64,000 bases of DNA from an uncultured Chloroflexia bacterium (GTDB lineage: Bacteria; Chloroflexota; Limnocylindria; Limnocylindrales; CSP1-4). Shown in pieces: positions 323 to 11,089 of the stretch; the first letter of the stretch is position 1; each line of letters starts with the position of its first letter. The notes under the pieces were generated by a model. The model had not been told where the DNA came from and ran no database searches. It saw only the letters and a program-made list of their open reading frames with translations. The stretch is taken from positions 336,817 to 400,816 of the forward strand of contig CAVRZZ010000003.1 in assembly GCA_963725875.1 (NCBI GenBank), given 5' to 3'. The position numbers were made by a program, and so were the translations under genes.

Positions 323-655
323 ACGGTAGGATGCGCGGGTGAGGATCATCGTCGACGTCGTGGCGGATCCCGCGGACCGGCCGCCCTGCGGCGCCCGCGT
401 CCGCGTCGAGGCGCGCGACACGACGTACGAGGACGCCCCGGCCGAGACCGTCGCGGCGGCCGACGGAATCGTGCGCGACGACGAGGGCGCCGCGCTCGAG
501 ACCGTGGAGCTGGAGCTGACCGTCGTCCCCGCCGTCTCCACGATCTGGGTCCACGTCGACGTGGACGGCGACGGGCGCGTGAGCCTCGGCGACTACGTGA
601 CGATGGCCTCGTTCCCGGTCCCGGCCCATGGACGGCGGGCGCGTGACCGTCGCGG

Positions 656-1600
656 TCAGGCGGGTCTGACCAGCCAGTCGGCGAGGGCCTGCGTGATCGG
701 CTGGCCGGTCCGCTGCTCGATGAAGAGGAACTCGCCGGCGGTGTTGACCTCGAGGAAGACGTGGTCGCCGGCCGGGGTCCGGCGCAGGTCGATGGCGCCG
801 TACACCAGGCCCAGCCGGTCCATGAGCGCCCGCAGCCGGGCTTCGACGTCGGCCGGGAGGTCGGTCGCGGTCGTGCTCGCCTGGCCGAGGGACATCCGGA
901 AGTCCACCGGGTAGTCGGTCGCCCGGGCGTCGATGGCGGCCGGAAAGATCCGGTCGCCCACGATGGTCACGCGCAGGTCGGCCTCGGCCTCGATGTACTC
1001 CTGGAAGATGACCGGGGCCACCCGGACCGCGTCCAGCATCTCCATCTCGGTCTCGCGCACGAGGCGCGTCTCGCGCCACACCTGGTGAGTGGCGGAGAAG
1101 GTCTTGAAGATCGTGCGTCCGATCTCCCGGGACTCGATGAACGCCCGGGCGGCGATCGGGTCGGACGTGATCAGGGTGCGCGGCACGGTCAACCCGATCT
1201 CCGAGGCGACCCGCAGCTGCCACGCCTTGCGGCCCGCGATCTCGTCGCGGTCCGGCGGGTTGCACCACGGGACGTCCAGCAGCAGCCACAGGCCGTTGAT
1301 CGCCTCGTTCCACTCGTTGGCCGTGAACATCCGCGTATCGAAGTCGCTCACCTCGGAGACGTCGGCCACCTGGGGCCGACGCCACCAGACGGCGTGCACG
1401 TTCCCGAGATCGACCGGCGGCCCGTCCGCCGGTCGATACTCGAGCGCCGGGCGGCGCGGGTCCGCGTAGTCGATCGTCAGCGCCGCCCGGCCGGGGAGCT
1501 CGGACAGGTCCAGCAGCAGGACCTCGTGCCCCCCGGCCCGGAGGACGTCGATGACGTGCGCGGCGTGGGGGTCTCCCGGGTGAGAGACGACCAGGATCAC
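656..1600 (-). CDS. ATP-grasp ribosomal-peptide maturase (MdnC/MvdD-type graspetide macrocyclase)
   Basis: 314 aa. Matches microviridin MdnC along its length: N-terminal 'ILVVSHPGD', 'AVWWRRP', 'LRVTIVGDRIFPAAI', 'YGAIDLRRTPAGDHVFLEVNTAGEFLFIE'. GTG start 12 nt after the upstream astacin stop. Confidence 0.85.
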   Translation of the reverse strand: MILVVSHPGDPHAAHVIDVLRAGGHEVLLLDLSELPGRAALTIDYADPRRPALEYRPADGPPVDLGNVHAVWWRRPQVADVSEVSDFDTRMFTANEWNEAINGLWLLLDVPWCNPPDRDEIAGRKAWQLRVASEIGLTVPRTLITSDPIAARAFIESREIGRTIFKTFSATHQVWRETRLVRETEMEMLDAVRVAPVIFQEYIEAEADLRVTIVGDRIFPAAIDARATDYPVDFRMSLGQASTTATDLPADVEARLRALMDRLGLVYGAIDLRRTPAGDHVFLEVNTAGEFLFIEQRTGQPITQALADWLVRPA

Positions 1601-1612
1601 GCCCGTGGGGGC

Positions 1613-2923
1613 TCAGCCACCGGTGGCTCGATCGTGGGCGTCCAGTGCCTGGCCGAGCGCCCCGGACGTCTCGTCGAACTGCGCCTGGAGCTGCTCGCGC
1701 AGGGCGTCGACCTGGGCGATCTGCTCGGCCAAGGCTCCGAGCTGGGCGTCGAGTGCCGCGGCGGCCGGCTCGAGGTCCGCGACATCGCCGGCGGCCGGCG
1801 CCTGGTGCGGCGCCACGACGGCGAAGGGCAGGCCTCCGCCGAGGCGCCCACCGAGACCCGGCTGCACGACGGGATTGACGACCGGGTTGACGAGCGGGCC
1901 GGGGTTGATCACCTCGACCAGGGTGCCGATCGGGTCGCGGCCCGCCTCCTTGATCGTGTCGAGGGCCAGCTCCTTCCGGGTGTCGGTGATGGCCTCCTTG
2001 CGCGTGTCGAAGGCGATCTCCTTCCGGGTGTCCAGGCGGAGGTCCTTGATCTGCTCCTTGCGCGTGTCGAAGATCTGGTCCTTGGGGATCTCCTTGAAGG
2101 TCGTGACGGGGCACATCGCGTTGGCGGAGGCGATGTCACCCGCGCTCAGGGCGGTGCGCTGGCCGATCGTCGCGGCCGGGTTGAGCGGCGTGATCGTGTC
2201 GCTGCCGTCGGTCGAGAACGCGTTCCGCGGGTAGTGCATGATCGAGCCGTAGTCGTACGGCCCCACGTCGTCGCCGTCCGCGATGTGCTGGTTGAAGTTG
2301 TGCTCGAGGCCGGCCTGGATCTTGTCCCAGTGGATGGTGACGAATGCGTCGCGATCCTCCCGGCTCTGCTCGTGCCAGAACCCGATCGTGTGGCCGATCT
2401 CGTGGATCGTGTTGCCGGTCGTGCAGCCGGCCGCCAGGTTGACGAACTGCTGGCCGCCGCGCCGCCCGACCGACGAAGAGCAGCCGGTCGACGGGCGGAA
2501 CGTGACGAAGTCCGCCTCGCCTGTCCGCGCCACGAACCGGAAGCCGGTGTTCGCCTGCCAGTGGGCGATCGCGTCGGTGACGCGGGCCTGGTTCGGCAGC
2601 GCCGGGTCGACGGTGAAGGGGACGGTGCAGTTGGGCCAGCGGAACTGCGCGCCGCTGATGATCACGCTCTCGGGCAGCGCCCCGCTGACCTGGGCCCGCA
2701 GCGCCTCGCTGGCCCGCTCGACCTCCTCGACCGTGCCCAGGACGATGTCGCCCTCGAACATGGCCAGCCCGTCGACCGCCACGTACTGGACGGCCCGGTG
2801 GTGGAAGGTGTTCCCCGCGATCAGGGCGGTGCGGACGTCGTTGCCCGTACGCTGCTCGCCGGGATCGTCGGAACTGGCGTTGCCGCCACGCTTCGGAGCC
2901 ATGGCCCCCCCTTTCGGCCGCAC
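1613..2923 (-). CDS. Astacin-family (M12A) zinc metalloprotease with C-terminal DTRKE tandem repeats; no signal peptide
   Basis: Zinc motif 'HEIGHTIGFWHEQSREDRD' and Met-turn 'SIMHY'. No N-terminal hydrophobic signal. Residues ~276-326 read 'KDQIFDTRKEQIKDLRLDTRKEIAFDTRKEAITDTRKELALDTIKEAG', followed by a coiled-coil-like tail. Start could instead be the ATG at 2903 (SD-like AAAGGGGGGG just upstream). Confidence 0.8.
   Translation of the reverse strand: MRPKGGAMAPKRGGNASSDDPGEQRTGNDVRTALIAGNTFHHRAVQYVAVDGLAMFEGDIVLGTVEEVERASEALRAQVSGALPESVIISGAQFRWPNCTVPFTVDPALPNQARVTDAIAHWQANTGFRFVARTGEADFVTFRPSTGCSSSVGRRGGQQFVNLAAGCTTGNTIHEIGHTIGFWHEQSREDRDAFVTIHWDKIQAGLEHNFNQHIADGDDVGPYDYGSIMHYPRNAFSTDGSDTITPLNPAATIGQRTALSAGDIASANAMCPVTTFKEIPKDQIFDTRKEQIKDLRLDTRKEIAFDTRKEAITDTRKELALDTIKEAGRDPIGTLVEVINPGPLVNPVVNPVVQPGLGGRLGGGLPFAVVAPHQAPAAGDVADLEPAAAALDAQLGALAEQIAQVDALREQLQAQFDETSGALGQALDAHDRATGG
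1946..2098 (-). repeat. Tandem direct DNA repeats encoding the (F)DTRKE(xI) peptide repeats inside the astacin gene
   Basis: Plus strand shows repeated 'ctccttgcgcgtgtcgaag' and 'ctccttccgggtgtc' units. Coordinates are approximate (+/-3). Confidence 0.7.
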
Positions 2924-3133: not shown

Positions 3134-3622
3134 TCACTCCTCCCCGATGTCCTCGTTCCAGAGATCGGGGTGCCCGGCGATGAACTCGCGCATCAGCTCG
3201 ACGCACGCGTCGGAGTCGAGGACGGCCACCGCCACGCCGCGCGAGCGCAGGTAGTCCTCCCCTCCGACGAAGCTCCGGCGCTCCCCGATGACGACGCGGG
3301 GGATCCCGTAGAGGAGGATCGCGCCCGTGCACATGTCGCACGGCGAGAGCGTCGTGTACATCGTCGACCGGCGGTACACCGACGCGGGCAGGCGTCCGGC
3401 AACCTCGAGCGCATCGGTCTCGCCGTGGCGGATCGCGCTCCCCTGCTGGACCCGCCGATTCCGACCGGCCCCGAGGACCCGCCCGTCGGCGACGAGCGCC
3501 GCCCCGATCGGGACGCCGCCCTCGTCGCGCCCGATCCGCGCCTGCTCGATCGCGACCTCCAGGAAGGCGCGGTCGACGGCCGCCTGGTCGGCGGGCGGCT
3601 CGCCGGCATGGAGGTCTTTCAT
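3134..3622 (-). CDS. Cytosine deaminase, yeast Fcy1-type (CDA fold, zinc-dependent)
   Basis: 162 aa from the internal ATG at 3622. Near-identical blocks to S. cerevisiae Fcy1: 'GGVPIG', 'GSAIRHGE', 'MYTTLSPCDMCTGAI', 'YGIPR', C-terminal 'WNEDIGEE'. The N-terminal extension of the long ORF 3134..4357 is Arg/Pro-rich junk. Confidence 0.85.
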   Translation of the reverse strand: MKDLHAGEPPADQAAVDRAFLEVAIEQARIGRDEGGVPIGAALVADGRVLGAGRNRRVQQGSAIRHGETDALEVAGRLPASVYRRSTMYTTLSPCDMCTGAILLYGIPRVVIGERRSFVGGEDYLRSRGVAVAVLDSDACVELMREFIAGHPDLWNEDIGEE

Positions 3623-3660: not shown

Positions 3661-3999
3661 TCAGTGCCGGAAGCCCGCCGCGGCGTACGGGTCGACGAGC
3701 GGCTCGCGCTGGCGTTCGAGGCGCGGCAGCTGCCGCTTCAGGTCCGCCAGGAACAGGTCGGCCACGTCGTGGCTGAAGCCGCGCTTCACGACCACCCGCA
3801 GCGCGGCGAGGTCGGTCCGGTTGGCCGGGAACGTGTACGCCGGGACCTGCCAGCCGCGCTCGCGGACGGCGTTCGAGACGTCGAAGGCCGAGAAGTTCCG
3901 CACGTCGTCCCGGAGCGTGAAGGCGAAGACGGGCAGCTCGTCGCCGCGGGTGAGCAGCTCGAAGGCGCGCGCTGGAGCCGGGGACAGGATCGCAGCCAT
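3661..3999 (-). pseudogene. Glutamate decarboxylase C-terminal fragment (about 110 aa remnant)
   Basis: 'RGWQVPAYTFPANRTDLAALRVVVKRGFSHDVADLFLADLKRQL' matches the GadA/GadB C-terminus 'RLRGWQVPAFTL...RIMCRRGF...'. Upstream in the same frame is low-complexity, so only the last ~110 of ~460 aa are present. Confidence 0.55.
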
Positions 4000-4175
4000 C
4001 GAGCGGGGCGGCGACCGGGCCGGGCGGCCGTTCGGGGAGGACGGCCATCCAGGCCCGGTCGCCGCGGGAAGCCCCGCAGGGGGCGTCGACCATGGCGCCG
4101 ACACGATCGGCCGCCATGCCCGTTCTCGCTCCGGGCACCGGGCAGACGGCGTCGGCCTGGCGGTGGCGGGAGTGA

Positions 4176-6147
4176 TCACCTCCAGGCGGTGACCGTCCCG
4201 CTGCTCGCGGATACGCTGCCGCCGGCGTAGAAGTAGACGGTGTAGGTCCCTGGCGGCCGTGAGGTCGTCGCGGCGCTGAAGCTCTTCTTCCTGCCCGAGG
4301 AGGTCGCGAGAGCACCCGACGGCGGGCTCCGACGCACCGGGTTCGCGCCCCCGGCAAACGGGTTGCCGGCGTAGACGGCCAGGGTGCCCTGGACTGTCGT
4401 GGGCGTCGTCCATGTTGCGCTCACGGGTCCGGCGGCGGTGCTCGTGACCGTGTACCAGTACCCGTAGCCAGTGCCGAGACCCGGGACCGACACCTGCGCG
4501 GACGTGGGCCCAGGCGTGGGCGTCGGGGTCGGCGTGGGCGTCGGCGGTCGGCGTCGGGTCGGGTGTCGGGGTCGGCGTCGGGTCGGGTGTCGGGGTCGGC
4601 GTGGGCGTCGGGGTCGGCGTCGGGTCGGGTGTCGGGGTCGGCGTGGGCGTCGGGGTCGGCGTCGGGGTCGGGGTCGGGGTCGGCGTCGGGGTCGGGGTCG
4701 GCGTCGGGGTCGGCGTGGGCGTCGGCGTCGGACCGGGTCCGCCCCCGAGTGCGTTGTGCGCCGCGAGGACATCGAGGCGGCCATGGCCGTAGCTGCTGTC
4801 CGCGCCGGCAGCTCCCAGGTCGCGCGCGGCATCGGTGAGCGCCGCCGACTGGGCGGCCGGGCTCATCTCGGGATGGGCGCTCAGCAGGAGCGCAAGGGCT
4901 CCGGCGACGTGCGGCGCCGCCATGGAGGTTCCCGTCGCCGACTGGTACGTGCCGAAGAGGTCGGCCGTGCGGATCTTCACCCCCGGGGCGACGATCTCCG
5001 GGTATGTGGTGGATGCTTCGCCGCACGCCGACGGGCCGCGGCTCGAGGTTGCGTCAATGACGTCGGTGATCTTCGTGTCGCCCACGGCGAGCGCTTCCGG
5101 GTAGTTCGCCGGGCTGACGCTCGTCGAGGCGCCGGGGCCGTAGTTGCCGGCCGCGAAGACCGGCACGATCCCGGCTGAGAGCAGCGCCTGGAGGTCCGGC
5201 TGGAAGGCCAGGTTGCAGCCCGGCGTGCCGTACGCCCACGAGTTGTTCACCACCTCGGGAGCGTCGGCCGTGGCAGGGTCGCCGTCCGGGTCGAGCACCC
5301 ACTGGAAGGCGGCGTGGATGGCCGTGGCGGTCGCCGTACCACTGTCGTTGAAGATCTTCGCGGCGATCCAGGTAGCCCCCGGCGCCATGCCGATCGACGT
5401 CCCGCCGGCGTCGCCGCCGACGATCACGCCCATGGTGGCCGTCCCGTGGCCGCTCAGGTCGGTCGGCACGCTCGGATGCTGGCCGTAGGGATCGAACCAG
5501 GAATCGGCGCCGCCGCGCCAGCGGCCCGCGAGGTCCGGGTGACCGACGTCCACGCCGGAATCCAGGTTCGCGACGACCACGCCCTGGCCGGTGTACCCGA
5601 GGGCCCACATGGCTGGCGCGTTGACGAGCGCGACGTTGGGCTCGTTGGGCGCCGACGACATCGGGTCCACTGGTGCCGGCGCGCGTGGCGCAACGGCCCC
5701 GGCGGGCACGATGGGGATCTCATCGGGGGTGACGCTGGCCACGTCGGCCCGCGCCGCGATCTCCGCGATCACGTCGGGCGTCGCCGTGACGGACAGCCCG
5801 TTGAAGATCCAGAAGGGCGTCTGCCAGGCGACGCGGCCCTGCGCCGCGCGCAGGCGGAGGATCGCCAGCAGCAGACGCTGCGACGCGAGGGCGTGGTCGC
5901 GGAGTGCCCGGATGACGGCTGCCAGCCGAGTTCTGCGGTCGGCCCCGCCGATCGACTGCAGGTCGGCTCGCGTTCGCATTGTGACGATGACCGTGGACAT
6001 TCCGGCCGGCGTGGACCCGCCGGCCGGAGCGTCGGTGAACGTGGCCGGGCCGCGGACGCCCTGGACCGAGGAGTTCGTGCTCGCGGCCACGGGCACGGCC
6101 GAGACCAGCAGGACGGCCCCCAGGGCCAGGGCGATGATCCGCCGCAT
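4176..6147 (-). CDS. Secreted subtilisin-like (S8) serine protease with PT-repeat linker and C-terminal beta-rich domain; apparent frameshift inside the PT linker
   Basis: Signal peptide 'MRRIIALALGAVLLVSAVPVAAS'. S8 catalytic blocks 'VVVANLDSGVDVGHPDL', 'HGTATMGVI', 'GTSMAAPHVAGALALL'. A long (PT)n tract follows. The C-terminal domain ('GYGYWYTVTSTAAGPVSATW...TYTVYFYAGG') is in a different frame (ORF 4176..4832), so a frame change near ~4520-4560 is needed to join them. Confidence 0.75.
4540..4745 (-). repeat. GC-rich dinucleotide-codon repeat encoding the (Pro-Thr)n linker
   Basis: Plus strand is a (ggcgtcggggtc)n-like repeat. It reads PTPT in one minus frame and RRPRRP or DADP in the others. 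Confidence 0.8.
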
Positions 6148-6743: not shown

Positions 6744-9668
6744 CTACGGCCCGAAGAGCGGCGACACCGATCGCTTGGAGGCGAAGGCGTCGAAGTACAT
6801 CAGGATGCTGCTGCCGCCGCTGGTGACCGAGCCCAGGCGGACCGCTCCCACGGAGCCCGCGCTGGTCGTGGCCAGCGTCTGCGACACCGCACCATCGACG
6901 TAGAGCGCGAGCGTGCCCGGGTTGGGGCCGACGCTGCCCACGGCCTGCCACACCACCTCGATGCGGTGAGCCGCGTTCGTGACGTTGACCCACGCCGGGT
7001 TGGCAGTGGCGCCCACCTGGATCTGCACCTGCGTCTGCCCCGCACTGAGGCGGTACCGAACGTGGAACAGCTGGGTGCCGAAGGTGTTGGACGTCGCAGC
7101 AGCGAGGATGTCCTGGCCGCTGGACGCATTGGCACGGGGATTGAAGGAGAACTGGGCGTCGTACGTCGGCCATGCCGGGTTGGCGGCCGTGCCGAAGTTG
7201 TACTGGACGTAGTTGGTGTTGTTGCCCTGGGCCTGCAGGCCGCGGGCGCCAACGAGCGCCGCTGCAGTCGACACATTCAGGCGGTTGGTCGTGTTGGTGG
7301 ACCGGCTGGTCCAGCCCCACGGGGCGCCGCCCGTGTCGAAGCCGTTCGAGAAGATGGCGACCGCGACGAGGGACACGGTCGCGCTGCTGGTGGTCGTGCT
7401 CCAGTTGCCCGCCGCGTCACGGACGCGGACGCCCACCGTGTGGTTGCCCGTGGTGAGCGAGCCCGCAGGGATGGCGGCGGCCAGGCCGGCAAAGGGCGTC
7501 CCTCCGCCCGGCGCCGGAGCGGCCGTGTCGATCCAGTACTCGCCGCCGGCAACGCCGCTAGCGAGGCCCGCGACGGGCGGGTCGGCAGCGCCGTCTACCG
7601 TCACGTTGATGCCGCCACCGAGCGTCGGGTTGACGGCCGCAAGGGTGATGCCCGTGAACGTGGGCGCGGTCTTGTCGATGAGGAGGACGACGGAGGCCGT
7701 CGCACCCCAGTTGCCCACCGCGTCCCTGCCGTGGACGTAGATCGTGTGGTTGCCGGCAGTGAGCAGGTCGATCGTGGTGAGCGGGACGTCGGCGTAGCCG
7801 GTCTCGCTCGCGGCATTGAAGACGCCGTCGTTGGCGACGAACGGGAAGCCGGAGCCGTTGGCGCCGACGGTGTCGATGAAGCCCTCGCCGGCGGCGACGG
7901 TGCTGGTGGCGCTGCTGAAGGCCGCGCTGACGCGCACCGACGGGTTGCTGGTGCTCTGACCGTATTGCCCGTTGTTGGCGGCGGGCGGGTTGGTCACGAC
8001 GCCCGAGGTCGTCGGACCGGTGGCCACCACCTCCAGGGTGATCGTGGTGAAGGGACCCCAGTTGCCCGCTGCGTCCTGGGCATGGACCGAGACCACGCCG
8101 CTCTGGCCGGCCGGGATGGTCGCCGAGAGGCTGACGATCGGGGCCGTGTTGTTGCGAGCCACGGTGATGCCGGTGCCGTTTGCACCCGGCGTGCCGATGA
8201 AGTACTCGGCCGCGACAACGTTGCCGTTGCCGGTGGCCGCGTCGCTGGCGGTGCCACTGAGGGCGACGGAGACGGTCCCGCTGGACGGGTTCGGGTTGAG
8301 CACGAGCGCGCTCGTGGCGGGACCCGTCGTGTCGATCGTGAAGTTGGTGGAGCTGAAGGCGCCCCAGTTGCCAGCGGAGTCCTGGCCGTGGACGTAGACG
8401 GCATGCGAGCCGCTCGACAGCGAGCCGAGCGTGATCGAGGCGTTGACCGAGGCGGTCGGCGACCCGAACGTGCCCGACATCGCCGTGCCCGACCCAGCCG
8501 CGCCGGTGGTGTCGATGAAGTACTCGGCGCCCGTGACACTGCTATTGCCCGTGTCGACGTCGCTGACCGAAGCGGCCAGGGCGCCGGACGAGACGGTGAA
8601 GGCCACACCGCTCGTGAGCGGACCGACGGTGTCGCCCGTCGACGAGCCGCTCGGCGCGGCGTCGATGAAGGCGAGCATCCCGCCGATCCCGGACGCGGTG
8701 CTGTTGTTCAGGGTCATGCTCGCGTCGTAGATCGCGTACTTGGTGGAGACCGCGGTCGTCGCCGGAAGCGTCACGAGCACGTCGGCCGTCTGGCCCGGGG
8801 CGATCGTCTCGGCGACCATTCCCCGCGGGACGATCGGGCTGCCGTCCGCGGCGAGCACGGACTGGCGCAGGCCGAGCACCCCGATCGAGTGATGCTGGAT
8901 CCCCGCGTTGGCGTAGCGCAGCAGGAGCCTGTTGCCGGAGGTCACGTTGATCGCCGGGGCCGTGCCGGAGTACGCCACGCCGTTGAGCAGTGAGTACTTC
9001 GGCGCGAAGTACCGCAGGTCGACGGTCCACGGCGTGAGACTGTTGTTCAGGGTCGGGTCGACCTCACCGAGGACGACCATCGCCTCGTCACTGAACGCCG
9101 TGGCGGCATCGGCGTAGGCCTGGCCGGGAGCCCCGGCCGGCTGGACGACGAGGACGCCGTACAGGCCCATCGCCACCTGGTACTCCGAGCCGGGGATGAG
9201 CCCGGCCTCGTAGAGGTAGGTCCCGGGGGCGCCGGCGACGAATGTGTATGACGTGGAGCCGCCCGCCACCACCCCGGTCAGGTCCGGAGCCATCGCCTGG
9301 CCGTCGAAGAGGATCGACGTCGGCCGGGCAAGGTGGTTGACCAGGTTGACGGTGACGGTGTCGCCCGCGGTGGCGACGAGGACGGGACCCGGCAGGGTCG
9401 GGCTCCCGCCGTCGGTGGCGCTGAAGCCCCAGACCGTGACGTTCGCCGGTGTGCCGGGCAGCGCAGCGCCGGTAAGGCTGCCGGTCTCGGCCCACAGGTT
9501 GCAGGTGACGGTCACCGGCGTGGCACCGCCGGGAGCCGAGCACGCCGTCGAGGTGATCGGCCCGGCGGCAGCCGCCGCCCCCGGGATCAACAGCGCCGCG
9601 ACGAGCAGCGCCGGACCCAGGACCAGCGAGGAGAGGAGGGTTCGCTTCATCGTTCGATCCGATCTCAT
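6744..9668 (-). CDS. Secreted multidomain protein: N-terminal multicopper-oxidase-fold region, about five Ig-like repeats, C-terminal LamG/ConA-like domain
   Basis: ATG at 9668 has an SD (GAGGTAGGGGA) and a signal peptide 'MRSDRTMKRTLLSSLVLGPALLVAALLIPGAAAAA'. The N-terminal region resembles MCO domains but has no HxH copper motifs. Repeats of 'GAEYFIDTTG...HAVYVHGQDSAGNWG' follow. The C-terminus is Asn/Thr-rich and beta-rich. Confidence 0.75.
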   Translation of the reverse strand: MRSDRTMKRTLLSSLVLGPALLVAALLIPGAAAAAGPITSTACSAPGGATPVTVTCNLWAETGSLTGAALPGTPANVTVWGFSATDGGSPTLPGPVLVATAGDTVTVNLVNHLARPTSILFDGQAMAPDLTGVVAGGSTSYTFVAGAPGTYLYEAGLIPGSEYQVAMGLYGVLVVQPAGAPGQAYADAATAFSDEAMVVLGEVDPTLNNSLTPWTVDLRYFAPKYSLLNGVAYSGTAPAINVTSGNRLLLRYANAGIQHHSIGVLGLRQSVLAADGSPIVPRGMVAETIAPGQTADVLVTLPATTAVSTKYAIYDASMTLNNSTASGIGGMLAFIDAAPSGSSTGDTVGPLTSGVAFTVSSGALAASVSDVDTGNSSVTGAEYFIDTTGAAGSGTAMSGTFGSPTASVNASITLGSLSSGSHAVYVHGQDSAGNWGAFSSTNFTIDTTGPATSALVLNPNPSSGTVSVALSGTASDAATGNGNVVAAEYFIGTPGANGTGITVARNNTAPIVSLSATIPAGQSGVVSVHAQDAAGNWGPFTTITLEVVATGPTTSGVVTNPPAANNGQYGQSTSNPSVRVSAAFSSATSTVAAGEGFIDTVGANGSGFPFVANDGVFNAASETGYADVPLTTIDLLTAGNHTIYVHGRDAVGNWGATASVVLLIDKTAPTFTGITLAAVNPTLGGGINVTVDGAADPPVAGLASGVAGGEYWIDTAAPAPGGGTPFAGLAAAIPAGSLTTGNHTVGVRVRDAAGNWSTTTSSATVSLVAVAIFSNGFDTGGAPWGWTSRSTNTTNRLNVSTAAALVGARGLQAQGNNTNYVQYNFGTAANPAWPTYDAQFSFNPRANASSGQDILAAATSNTFGTQLFHVRYRLSAGQTQVQIQVGATANPAWVNVTNAAHRIEVVWQAVGSVGPNPGTLALYVDGAVSQTLATTSAGSVGAVRLGSVTSGGSSILMYFDAFASKRSVSPLFGP

Positions 9669-9685
9669 GGTCGTTCCCCTACCTC

Positions 9686-11089
9686 TCATTGCGGACAACT
9701 GTTGGGCAGGGGCGGATCGACCCGCGTGTAGGTGATCGGCCCGGTCATGTTCACGCCCCACGACGTGATCTGGTAGAGCGCGTGGTTGTGGGCGATGATG
9801 TAGAACTCGCCGCACTCGTTGAGCGTGGAGATGCCAGGCGGCATCGGCTCCGTGACGCCCAGGTACGGGCTGCCGCTGTAGAACATGCCGACGGTGAGGT
9901 TCTGCAGGTTCGGCTCGCTGGCAGGCACCGGGTTCGCCGGCGAGTAGTCCTCGTTGTCCCTCCAGTTGAACAGCACGTCCCAGGTCTGGCCGGGGCCGAT
10001 GTTCACGGAGAACTTGTCGAAGGACATGTCCTGGCCGGTCGGACCCTCGAGCGGTGCGCCGTCGCGGCCGATCACCTTGCCGTTGTTCCCGTGCGGATGG
10101 AACGGGTAGTCCTCGGTCCCGACGGACAGGTAGCGGTCGAGGGCCGGATCGGGGTTGGCCGCCGCGTCGTACGGGTGGATCGTCGCCAGCGAGCCGTACG
10201 GCTGGCTGGGCAGCCACGAGGCGAAGTTGTCGGCGATGCTGTCGGGGAACCCGCGGCCATTGATCAGCCAGTAGCGCGGGTGGTAGGTGTTCATGTTGAA
10301 GGCCTTGGTGCCCTTCAGGACCGCAGCGTTCAGGTACGGGTCGATCTCGGAGAGCAGGACCAGGAACTCGGTGTCAGGGTTGAACTTCGAGTCGACCCGG
10401 TCGTTGGCCCAGTCGGGGTGGTCCGCCGGCCGCACGATCAGCGCTCCGAAGAGGCCCATGCGCACCTGCACCTGCGGGCTCGAGAAGAAGCTCGAGCCGC
10501 TGGTCCGCTGCCCGCCGCCGCTCTCGTAGAGGAACGTGCCGGGCTTGGAGGCGACGAAGCTGTAGGTGACCGTGCCGCCGCCCGGCTGCGCGGCCTGCGC
10601 GAGCGAGGTGAGCGCCCCGCCGACGAACTGCGGCTGTGAGGGCACGCCGTCCGCGGTGACGTTCTCCTGGCCCGGGAAGATGATCGACACGGCCGGCGCG
10701 CTCTTCGGCGACGACGTCGTGAACGCGTTCTTCAGGATGACCGTGACGGTGTCGCCCTCGGTGACGCACAGCACGGGCCCCGGGTGCTGGAAGGGCCGGC
10801 TGCCCTCCGAGAAGCCCCACATGTACGCCGTGGTCCCGTCCGGCAGGTTGATGTACCCCGCCTTCGTCGTCAGCGTGAACGTCGGGTTCGGGCCGGCGCT
10901 TGTCGTGCAGGCGATGCCGGTCCGGTTCGCGGACTCCGTGGCCGCCAGGGTCGGCCGCACGGCCGCCGACGACAGCAGCACGCTGGAGACCAGGACCGAC
11001 GAGACCGCGAGCGCCAGCGCCGGGTGGGCGCGCGGGCGCGAGAATCGTCTCATCGTCATCACTCCGCTCTTCGCAAACGGTCTCATCAC
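9686..11089 (-). CDS. Multicopper-oxidase-like protein with degenerate copper sites
   Basis: 467 aa. A TAT-like 'MRRFSRP' is followed by a hydrophobic signal. The domain-1 HWHG position reads 'SIIFPGQ'. Domain 3 has 'HPFHPHG' and 'AHNHALYQ' in place of HCHxxxH, so the T1 Cys is Asn. Start ATG overlaps the upstream gene's stop (ATGA). Confidence 0.75.
   Translation of the reverse strand: MMRPFAKSGVMTMRRFSRPRAHPALALAVSSVLVSSVLLSSAAVRPTLAATESANRTGIACTTSAGPNPTFTLTTKAGYINLPDGTTAYMWGFSEGSRPFQHPGPVLCVTEGDTVTVILKNAFTTSSPKSAPAVSIIFPGQENVTADGVPSQPQFVGGALTSLAQAAQPGGGTVTYSFVASKPGTFLYESGGGQRTSGSSFFSSPQVQVRMGLFGALIVRPADHPDWANDRVDSKFNPDTEFLVLLSEIDPYLNAAVLKGTKAFNMNTYHPRYWLINGRGFPDSIADNFASWLPSQPYGSLATIHPYDAAANPDPALDRYLSVGTEDYPFHPHGNNGKVIGRDGAPLEGPTGQDMSFDKFSVNIGPGQTWDVLFNWRDNEDYSPANPVPASEPNLQNLTVGMFYSGSPYLGVTEPMPPGISTLNECGEFYIIAHNHALYQITSWGVNMTGPITYTRVDPPLPNSCPQ

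Follow-up and report, generated by a model that had tools for sequence, protein, structure and literature searches.

The cassette and its two enzymes

In this work we have examined a locus on contig CAVRZZ010000003.1 of an uncultured Chloroflexia bacterium, which lies within a stretch of 64,000 nucleotides (positions 336,817 to 400,816 of the forward strand) that is referred to as a whole as the window. Two genes follow each other on its minus strand, the first for an astacin metalloprotease with a repetitive C-terminal tail and the second for an ATP-grasp ligase, and by the predicted identity of their products they make up a three-gene cassette together with a gene for a small YscW-like protein (Table 1). 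The stop codon of the astacin gene and the GTG start codon of the ligase gene are separated by 12 nucleotides (nt), as the initial annotation, made from the letters of the DNA alone, had described, and they are in the same frame.

The ligase carries the pre-ATP-grasp domain ATPgraspMvdD (Pfam PF21068) together with a RimK ATP-grasp domain (PF08443). Among the NCBIfam models it scored 235 bits with TIGR04187, 183 with MvdD and 182 with MvdC, compared with 44.5 bits for the RimK family, the cut-off of which is 143. Its nearest relatives of solved structure are MdnB, 9bou, MdnC, AMdnB, CdnC and PsnB, with E values from 2e-34 to 7e-17, the named ones being ligases for microviridin, chryseoviridin and plesiocin, whereas structures of RimK were matched at 4e-8 and over the C-terminal ATP-grasp half only. 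Judged by these profiles the ligase is of the graspetide type and not of the RimK type, which bears out its earlier assignment to the MdnC/MvdD group, albeit with scores under the curated cut-offs. An amino-acid ligase of the RimK or GshB type, or RimK-like tailing, was rejected on the difference between 44 and 235 bits and on the weaker structure matches.

The astacin has 436 amino acids when counted from the GTG at 2923. Because a public protein with 100% identity (P0001, 429 amino acids) begins at M8, which corresponds to the ATG at 2902, this ATG is likely the true start, giving a product of 429 amino acids. Pfam Astacin (PF01400) matches the catalytic domain with an E value of 5e-49, and the NCBIfam LegP model (NF045530) matches residues 29-272 with 317 bits against a cut-off of 300. 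The zinc site HEIGHTIGFWHEQSREDRD agrees with the consensus HExxHxxGxxHExxRxDRD, its key residues are invariant in 54 homologues, and the Met-turn SIMHY (consensus SxMHY, with the tyrosine as a zinc ligand) stands at residues 227-231; the invariant columns of the catalytic domain are H174, E175, H178, H184, E185, R188, D190, R191, D192, M229, H230 and Y231. In the N-terminal pro-segment E57, G58 and D59 of the FEGDI motif are invariant and I60 is nearly so, in two alignments. We take FEGDI to be a candidate for the aspartate-switch motif known from pro-astacin, and we regard the enzyme as a candidate zymogen with a canonical N-terminal pro-segment, in which FEGDI may ligate zinc. No hydrophobic N-terminal stretch was found in the astacin or in 80 homologues, nor in the other two proteins of the locus. 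An M12A astacin with a HExxH zinc motif and SIMHY but no signal peptide had been recognized earlier, and all of these features are in place; it had also been called cytoplasmic, which holds in so far as a Sec signal is absent, while a cytoplasmic location beyond that is not supported. For both the astacin and the ATP-grasp there are thousands of homologues at 60-90% identity, and those of the astacin span 93-100% of its length, tail included. The best-known protein to which the astacin can be compared is LegP of Legionella: the pro-segment and the catalytic domain (residues 29-272) score above the LegP cut-off, and a Sec signal is likewise missing. However, the LegP model stops where the tail of the window astacin starts, no link to an ATP-grasp has been described for LegP, and nothing at the window locus indicates a Dot/Icm system.

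Table 1. Features of the cassette in the window, and the maturase found in place of the ATP-grasp in three loci of the survey (L057, L060, L067)
Feature	Position	Strand	Basis
LegP-like astacin (M12A), predicted zymogen, with candidate modifiable C-terminal tail	1613..2923	-	Pfam PF01400, NCBIfam LegP NF045530
FEGDI motif, residues 56-60, N-terminal pro-segment	2744..2758	-	alignment conservation
Astacin catalytic domain, residues 95-270	2114..2641	-	Pfam match
Zinc site HEIGHTIGFWHEQSREDRD, residues 174-192	2348-2404	-	consensus and invariant columns
Core-like repeat region, residues 274-326	1946..2104	-	Tandem Repeats Finder, shuffle test, unit conservation
PFAVVAPHQAP motif, residues 366-376, behind Pro/Gly-rich linker	1796..1828	-	conservation; proposed ATP-grasp recognition element
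C-terminal amphipathic helix, residues 381-434	1622..1783	-	AlphaFold2 prediction and conservation
Graspetide-type ATP-grasp ligase, MvdD/MdnC-like, 314 amino acids, GTG start	656..1600	-	Pfam, NCBIfam, PDB relatives
Convergent YscW-like small protein, 109 amino acids as 339-626 + 628-669	339..669	+	reading frames, own hidden Markov model
PqqD + radical SAM + SPASM maturase, astacin-adjacent, replaces ATP-grasp	L057 2455-3747, L060 7657-8997, L067 2575-3885		

The tail and its partners in 80 loci

Behind the catalytic domain the tail contains six TxK[D/E] units, at residues 275, 287, 299, 307, 315 and 323, with a spacing of 8 or 12 residues. One unit reads TFKE, four read DTRKE and one DTIKE, so that five are of the form DTxKE; the tandem DTRKE-type repeats of the initial annotation are thus real. 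They are visible in the DNA as well, where Tandem Repeats Finder reported positions 1946-2049 (period 24/48, score 118), and in a shuffle test of the protein or of the 60-residue repeat region none of 20,000 shuffled sequences reached six units, the maximum being three. In 514 units from 120 homologues the pattern is T0 and K2 with E3 conserved at 98%, D7 at 94% and D-1 at 85%, and a tail may have from 3 to 12 units, again spaced by 8 or 12 residues. Other lineages use units of other types, namely TIKEVRKDPIxDP, KFRDDP/KKIRDD/TPNKFIDDG, KELPKELQ (KELP) and TGGIKKLRDD, and the sole constant among all of them is a Lys plus an acidic residue. Since several of these variants hold Pro or Gly-Gly in every unit, a helical structure shared by all types is excluded, and the idea that the repeats are a single alpha-helix spacer was rejected on this ground. 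In two loci (L050, L057) masked runs of N fall within the repeats, and the repeat counts of these tails are too low.

The repeats are followed by a motif with the logo GGx[LRV]PFAV[AV]TPHQAP in 120 homologues, of which P366 and F367 are invariant and which is absent from tails without an ATP-grasp partner. Makarova et al. (2022; PMC8939145) found that graspetide leaders typically hold the signature 'Phhx(1,2)h', which engages the ligase and was equated with the microviridin motif PFFARFL, and PFAVV of the window fits this signature. A helix rich in Gln, Ala, Leu and Glu, with the pattern LDAQLxALAEQIAQxDAxRxQLQAQFDE and with D392, Q413 and Q415 invariant, is kept behind the PF motif in all K/T–D/E repeat tails. 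AlphaFold2 predicted it at residues 381-434 with a predicted local distance difference test (pLDDT) score of 58-86 for the astacin alone and of 77-91 in an artificial fusion with the ATP-grasp, and the helix was the only part which gained confidence in the fusion. This fusion was modelled as a read-through from the astacin into the ATP-grasp with an X at the stop codon and with an unpaired block alignment, and it yielded no coordinates. With its near-invariant cross-linkable positions, its variable copy number and motif type and its fixed PF motif, the tail appears to evolve in the manner of a precursor.

The distribution of such tails was followed in 80 loci, one genome per species, from at least ten phyla (Chloroflexota, Nitrospirota, Acidobacteriota, Gemmatimonadota, Actinomycetota, Alpha-, Beta- and Gammaproteobacteria, Bacteroidota, Planctomycetota and others), whose open reading frames were searched with the window proteins and with a hidden Markov model of our own. 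Wherever an astacin with a K/T–D/E repeat tail had sequence downstream, the ATP-grasp gene came directly next (70 of 70 loci), with an inferred gap mostly of -4 to +30 nt; three more tails of this kind stop at a contig edge. Astacins with another tail or with none, and with room downstream, were followed by an ATP-grasp in none of seven cases. The question whether astacin homologues with repeats sit next to an ATP-grasp in other genomes, which had been raised with the first description of the locus, is answered by these counts. Three loci (L057, L060, L067) have Cys/Pro tails of the form (CPPAPRxx)n, which pass into an end rich in Tyr, Asp, Glu and Cys, and their ATP-grasp slot is occupied by a protein with PqqD, Radical_SAM and SPASM domains, an arrangement that is standard for radical SAM maturases of peptides. 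The catalytic domains of these astacins are 62-65% identical to that of the window, and so as close to it as ATP-grasp-linked relatives; the Cys/Pro tails with their radical SAM neighbour seem to represent another kind of modified tail in the same protease family, one that has not been described. Elsewhere the tail is a ricin-B-like QxW repeat (L079, 5986-7587, Niabella) or a series of Trp-rich repeats of about 45 residues which resembles a propeller lectin (L081, 4887-6779, Streptomyces), and two astacins are tailless (L078, L082); no ATP-grasp or radical SAM maturase was found at these four loci, the neighbours of which were not surveyed for other enzymes, and a YscW-like gene is adjacent in all of them. 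Throughout the 80 loci the type of tail and the type of maturase co-vary perfectly.

The repeats and the PF motif are also found without the protease. When the tail alone was searched for among 1.8 billion representatives, about 80 non-astacin proteins were obtained in which DTLKE/KDPIxD repeats and the motif PFV(M/L)ATPH(H/Q)AP are joined to an unrelated N-domain of about 100 residues, often with a second repeat block behind the PF motif; the C-terminal amphipathic helix is absent from them. An ATP-grasp 41-44% identical to that of the window stands directly after the carrier gene in all of the five contigs that were examined (L084-L088), the copy in L087 being split over two frames, and no YscW-like open reading frame was detected at these five loci, even at an E value of 10. 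These carriers, namely P0254, P0260, P0276, P0277, P0349 and the about 80 relatives, probably serve as large graspetide precursors themselves, and the ATP-grasp that follows them is of the MvdD type. They are 290-390 amino acids long and have no Pfam domain; their anatomy consists of a conserved N-domain that contains KSFADFVKEAPSVTEAAR, two DTLKE/KDPIxD blocks flanking PFVMATPHHAP, and a conserved C-terminal NPPIWNLPGLMF. The loci with an exchanged maturase and the non-astacin carriers together indicate that the module of repeats and PF motif tracks the ATP-grasp, and that the YscW-like protein goes with the astacin.

The YscW-like gene had been overlooked in the initial annotation, which saw no separate precursor gene and no candidate reading frame on either side of the pair. 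Its convergent reading frame overlaps the 3' end of the ATP-grasp gene by 14 nt, and a shift of 1 nt in the CCC run 625-627 breaks it in two; dropping one C restores a 109-residue protein colinear with its orthologue in L004. Since this orthologue, from the closest genome, is intact with 109 amino acids, the frameshift probably stems from misassembly of the homopolymer or from a recent lesion on the way to a pseudogene. Orthologues scored 29.3 and 27.7 bits with Pfam YscW (PF09619, threshold 22.6), the frameshifted window copy fell below this threshold, and the family profile matched PDB entry 5wec ('lipoprotein') at 8e-11; from these matches the protein is classed as a small folded domain. 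Its invariant residues are D27, D32, H70, G82 and D83, no Thr/Lys–acid pattern is invariant, and the Asp-rich DxDGDG loop is missing in many loci with an ATP-grasp. With our own model the gene was found in nearly every locus, including loci without an ATP-grasp; among the radical SAM loci it lies downstream in L060 and L067 and was not detected in L057. In Pseudoxanthomonas (L001-L003, L014, L015) it is convergent and overlaps the 3' end of the ATP-grasp gene by about 70 nt, in other lineages it is co-directional, and it remains closely linked although its orientation changes from clade to clade. Because it is kept where the ATP-grasp is missing and is absent beside the non-astacin carriers, it appears to follow the astacin, of which it is probably a partner and not a precursor; this beta-sandwich protein may be a chaperone or an inhibitor or immunity partner, which is a guess.

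This gene has been read differently before. In the supplement to their study Carter, Ramesh, Saad, Mubarik and Mitchell (2026, ACS Chem Biol, PMC13097080) listed an uncharacterised 'graspetide group 30', whose synthetase co-occurs with a PF01400 astacin in 98.5% and with PF09619 YscW in 80% of clusters, and for which RODEO predicted a YscW-like protein of 112 amino acids as the precursor. The small window protein is 34% identical to this 'precursor' (E 2e-6), which itself weakly matches YscW.

No conserved small open reading frame (18-100 amino acids) came to light in the 80 loci, whether upstream of the astacin gene or on the downstream side of the cassette; the hits were low-complexity noise of high GC content and frames antisense to the YscW-like gene. 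The proposal that the astacin is the leader peptidase for an unseen precursor finds no support in this result. Clustering of the larger reading frames in the loci gave no other conserved neighbour, such as a transporter or a second protease. An S8 protease stands beside the window locus and beside a Pseudoxanthomonas locus and is not conserved. In the window it forms the start of an 828-residue reading frame (3661-6147, minus strand); this subtilase looks secreted and has a long linker of Pro and Thr (DNA tandem repeat 4513-4731), and the last 130 residues or so of the frame resemble the C-terminus of a glutamate decarboxylase; these are probably two genes fused by a frameshift or an assembly error. 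Between it and the astacin lies a gene of the cytidine/deoxycytidylate deaminase family (3134-3600, minus strand), which is not kept beside the cassette elsewhere. Farther away, at 6744-10217 on the same strand, a protein of 1157 amino acids with multicopper-oxidase domains and bacterial Ig-like (Big_13) repeats is encoded, seemingly unrelated to the cassette. Across the 64 kb of the window no Rfam family came up to its gathering score, and none of the three cassette proteins matched a PADLOC defence model.

The substrate of the ligase

Could the ligase act on the protease encoded next to it? We consider it likely, on the strength of the comparison above, that the C-terminal tail of the astacin and not a separate small peptide is the substrate of the neighbouring graspetide-type ATP-grasp. 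That the repeats might be a fused multi-core substrate had been offered before as one of two readings, and it is now strongly favoured by the co-variation of tail and maturase and by the portable module. The tail would have the layout of a precursor of a peptide that is ribosomally synthesized and then post-translationally modified (RiPP) in reverse, with the core units first and then the Pro/Gly-rich linker, PFAV(A/V)(T/A)PHQAP and the amphipathic helix. Each unit would supply Thr and Lys as nucleophiles and Glu and Asp as carboxylates. According to this model, the ligase would dock on the PF motif, possibly aided by the helix, the side chains of Asp and Glu in the units would be activated at the expense of ATP, and rings would then be closed in each unit by Lys-to-acid isopeptide and/or Thr-to-acid ester bonds. 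Candidate pairings in TxKExxxD are K2–D7 with T0–E3, or T0–D7, and the product we infer is a protease with a cross-braced tail. Such a modified tail might be a protease-resistant targeting or stabilising appendage, or its units might be released by the astacin. By analogy, the lectin-like tails of sister proteins suggest that the tails serve targeting or stability outside the cytoplasm of the producer, and no export route is evident.

Several observations weigh against a modified tail. The ligase scores under the NCBIfam curated cut-offs for the named graspetide families. The 70 loci share ancestry and the cassette is passed on as a whole, and the counts therefore exceed the number of independent events. 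It is unusual for graspetides that the recognition motif is C-terminal to the cores or, in the non-astacin carriers, between two blocks of them, and the published RODEO analysis names the YscW-like protein and not the tail as the precursor. In the AlphaFold2 fusion the PFAV motif remained at a pLDDT of about 31-33 with no confident docking, under an unpaired alignment, and the repeats formed a low-confidence helix only (50-68). Because of this alignment and of the missing coordinates, the docking test is uninformative and not negative. The events of most weight are the independent ones, namely the exchange of the maturase for a radical SAM protein and the relocation of the module onto a different protein. 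With rather less assurance, and just on the favourable side of an even chance, we propose the wider picture that LegP-like astacins are a modular platform whose tails are RiPP-like substrates of swappable maturases, that the ligase reads a motif behind its cores and that the precursor assignment of group 30 is wrong.

The charged repeat might also be a mere spacer, that is, a flexible link to a coiled-coil oligomerisation helix, with the ATP-grasp acting elsewhere through RimK-like C-terminal addition or on a distant peptide. The AlphaFold2 models accord with this, as they show low-confidence repeats and a C-terminus that is one long helix; repeats rich in Glu, Lys and Arg can form single helices, and the sub-threshold scores of the ligase fit as well. 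We nevertheless find it unlikely, since the variants with Pro or Gly-Gly (TIKEVRKDPIxDP, TGGIKKLRDD) preclude one helix and yet keep Lys and an acid, tail and ligase occur together in all 70 loci and are swapped together, and on a different protein the module is again accompanied by the ligase. Moreover, the RimK models score far below the graspetide models, and a conserved small reading frame is missing from the loci.

Alternatively, the cross-linked repeats could be a protease inhibitor by which the astacin, or a target protease, is kept from acting as long as the tail is in place. Microviridins and plesiocin do inhibit proteases, with a potency that rises with the number of repeats (PMC13097080), and the tail has a covalent link to a protease. 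But the known graspetide inhibitors hit serine proteases, a pro-segment with FEGDI is already present at the N-terminus, and no prediction puts the tail into the active-site cleft. Close relatives have lectin-like tails, Cys repeats or no tail at all, so that latency cannot depend on this tail. An inhibitory role is therefore quite improbable in our view, and the self-inhibitory pro-domain suggested in the initial annotation has found no support.

We give even less credence to the remaining explanation, which takes the YscW-like protein for the graspetide precursor, sees in the astacin either a leader peptidase or a means of resistance, and leaves the tail without any connection to the ligase. 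It has in its favour that Carter et al. list a homologous protein of about 110 amino acids as the predicted precursor of group 30, that they see a possible maturation or resistance role for proteases of this type (PMC13097080), and that the gene stands directly behind the ATP-grasp gene and often overlaps it. The same gene, however, accompanies astacins without an ATP-grasp (L078, L079, L081, L082) and with a radical SAM maturase (L060, L067), and it is absent from all five carrier loci; its product is a folded domain, and the structure of a homologue has been solved (5wec). Orthologues of the product pass the Pfam YscW threshold, and its invariant residues lack a Thr/Lys–acid pattern, the DxDGDG loop being lost in many loci with an ATP-grasp.

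Relation to known graspetides and significance

The window locus almost certainly belongs to group 30, as it has the same gene set of synthetase, PF01400 astacin and PF09619 YscW-like protein. The present view differs in that the precursor of the survey is the YscW-like protein, whereas here the evidence favours the tail of the astacin, and in the extent of the group, which is far wider than the about 65 clusters listed there and spans at least ten phyla. The pairing of the genes has thus already been catalogued, and in the accessible parts of PMC13097080 the idea of the tail as a substrate is apparently not put forward. In the searchable literature no main text couples an astacin with graspetides, the only mention being a supplementary table and a figure of that study, and searches for astacins with an ATP-grasp or for the motifs DTRKE, DTLKE or DTxKE returned nothing relevant.

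The nearest characterised chemistry to the proposed cross-linking of the tail is that of corallotide (group 15), whose precursor CorA of about 22 kDa has five KxxxD ('KIVADDP') repeats in which CorB, a ligase of the TIGR04187 family, joins Lys to Asp (i+4) (PMC13097080). A large repeat precursor and a TIGR04187 ligase are common to both systems, and the tail variants KFRDDP/KKIRDD resemble the corallotide motif. CorA, however, has no enzyme domain, it occurs with a 2-oxoglutarate oxygenase and a protein of beta-lactamase fold, and it is confined to Corallococcus; the TxKExxxD unit of the window, with its two nucleophiles and two acids, would also need another ring pattern. Plesiocin (PsnA/PsnB) and the multi-core microviridins are similar in that one ATP-grasp, with the fold of MdnC, MdnB and PsnB, serves several cores in one polypeptide. 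Their precursors are small stand-alone peptides with an N-terminal leader of the PFFARFL type, whereas the putative cores of the window are attached to a protease of 270 amino acids and the motif comes after them. Borosins of the OphMA type set the precedent for a RiPP core that is joined to a complete enzyme at its C-terminus. There the fused enzyme is the modifying methyltransferase itself, while here it would be a protease that is served by a separate ligase.

Graspetide ligases have been studied as makers of small cyclic peptides guided by a leader. If our interpretation is true, graspetide chemistry extends to natural protein substrates, in this case the tail of a protease of about 430 amino acids, and the cassette is a natural example of a recognition motif located downstream of the cores, which would be useful for engineering the cyclisation or stapling of proteins. 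It would also set right a choice of precursor which otherwise leads experimental work to the wrong gene. The new aspect would be a graspetide-type system with its cores on a protease, which contradicts the published assignment and for a direct test of which two plasmids and a mass spectrometer suffice. The cassette has no known role, and it is spread among bacteria from soil and water that belong to at least ten phyla. The radical SAM/SPASM protein in the same slot suggests that a general, undescribed habit may lie behind it, that of an astacin family whose tails are tailored by enzymes.

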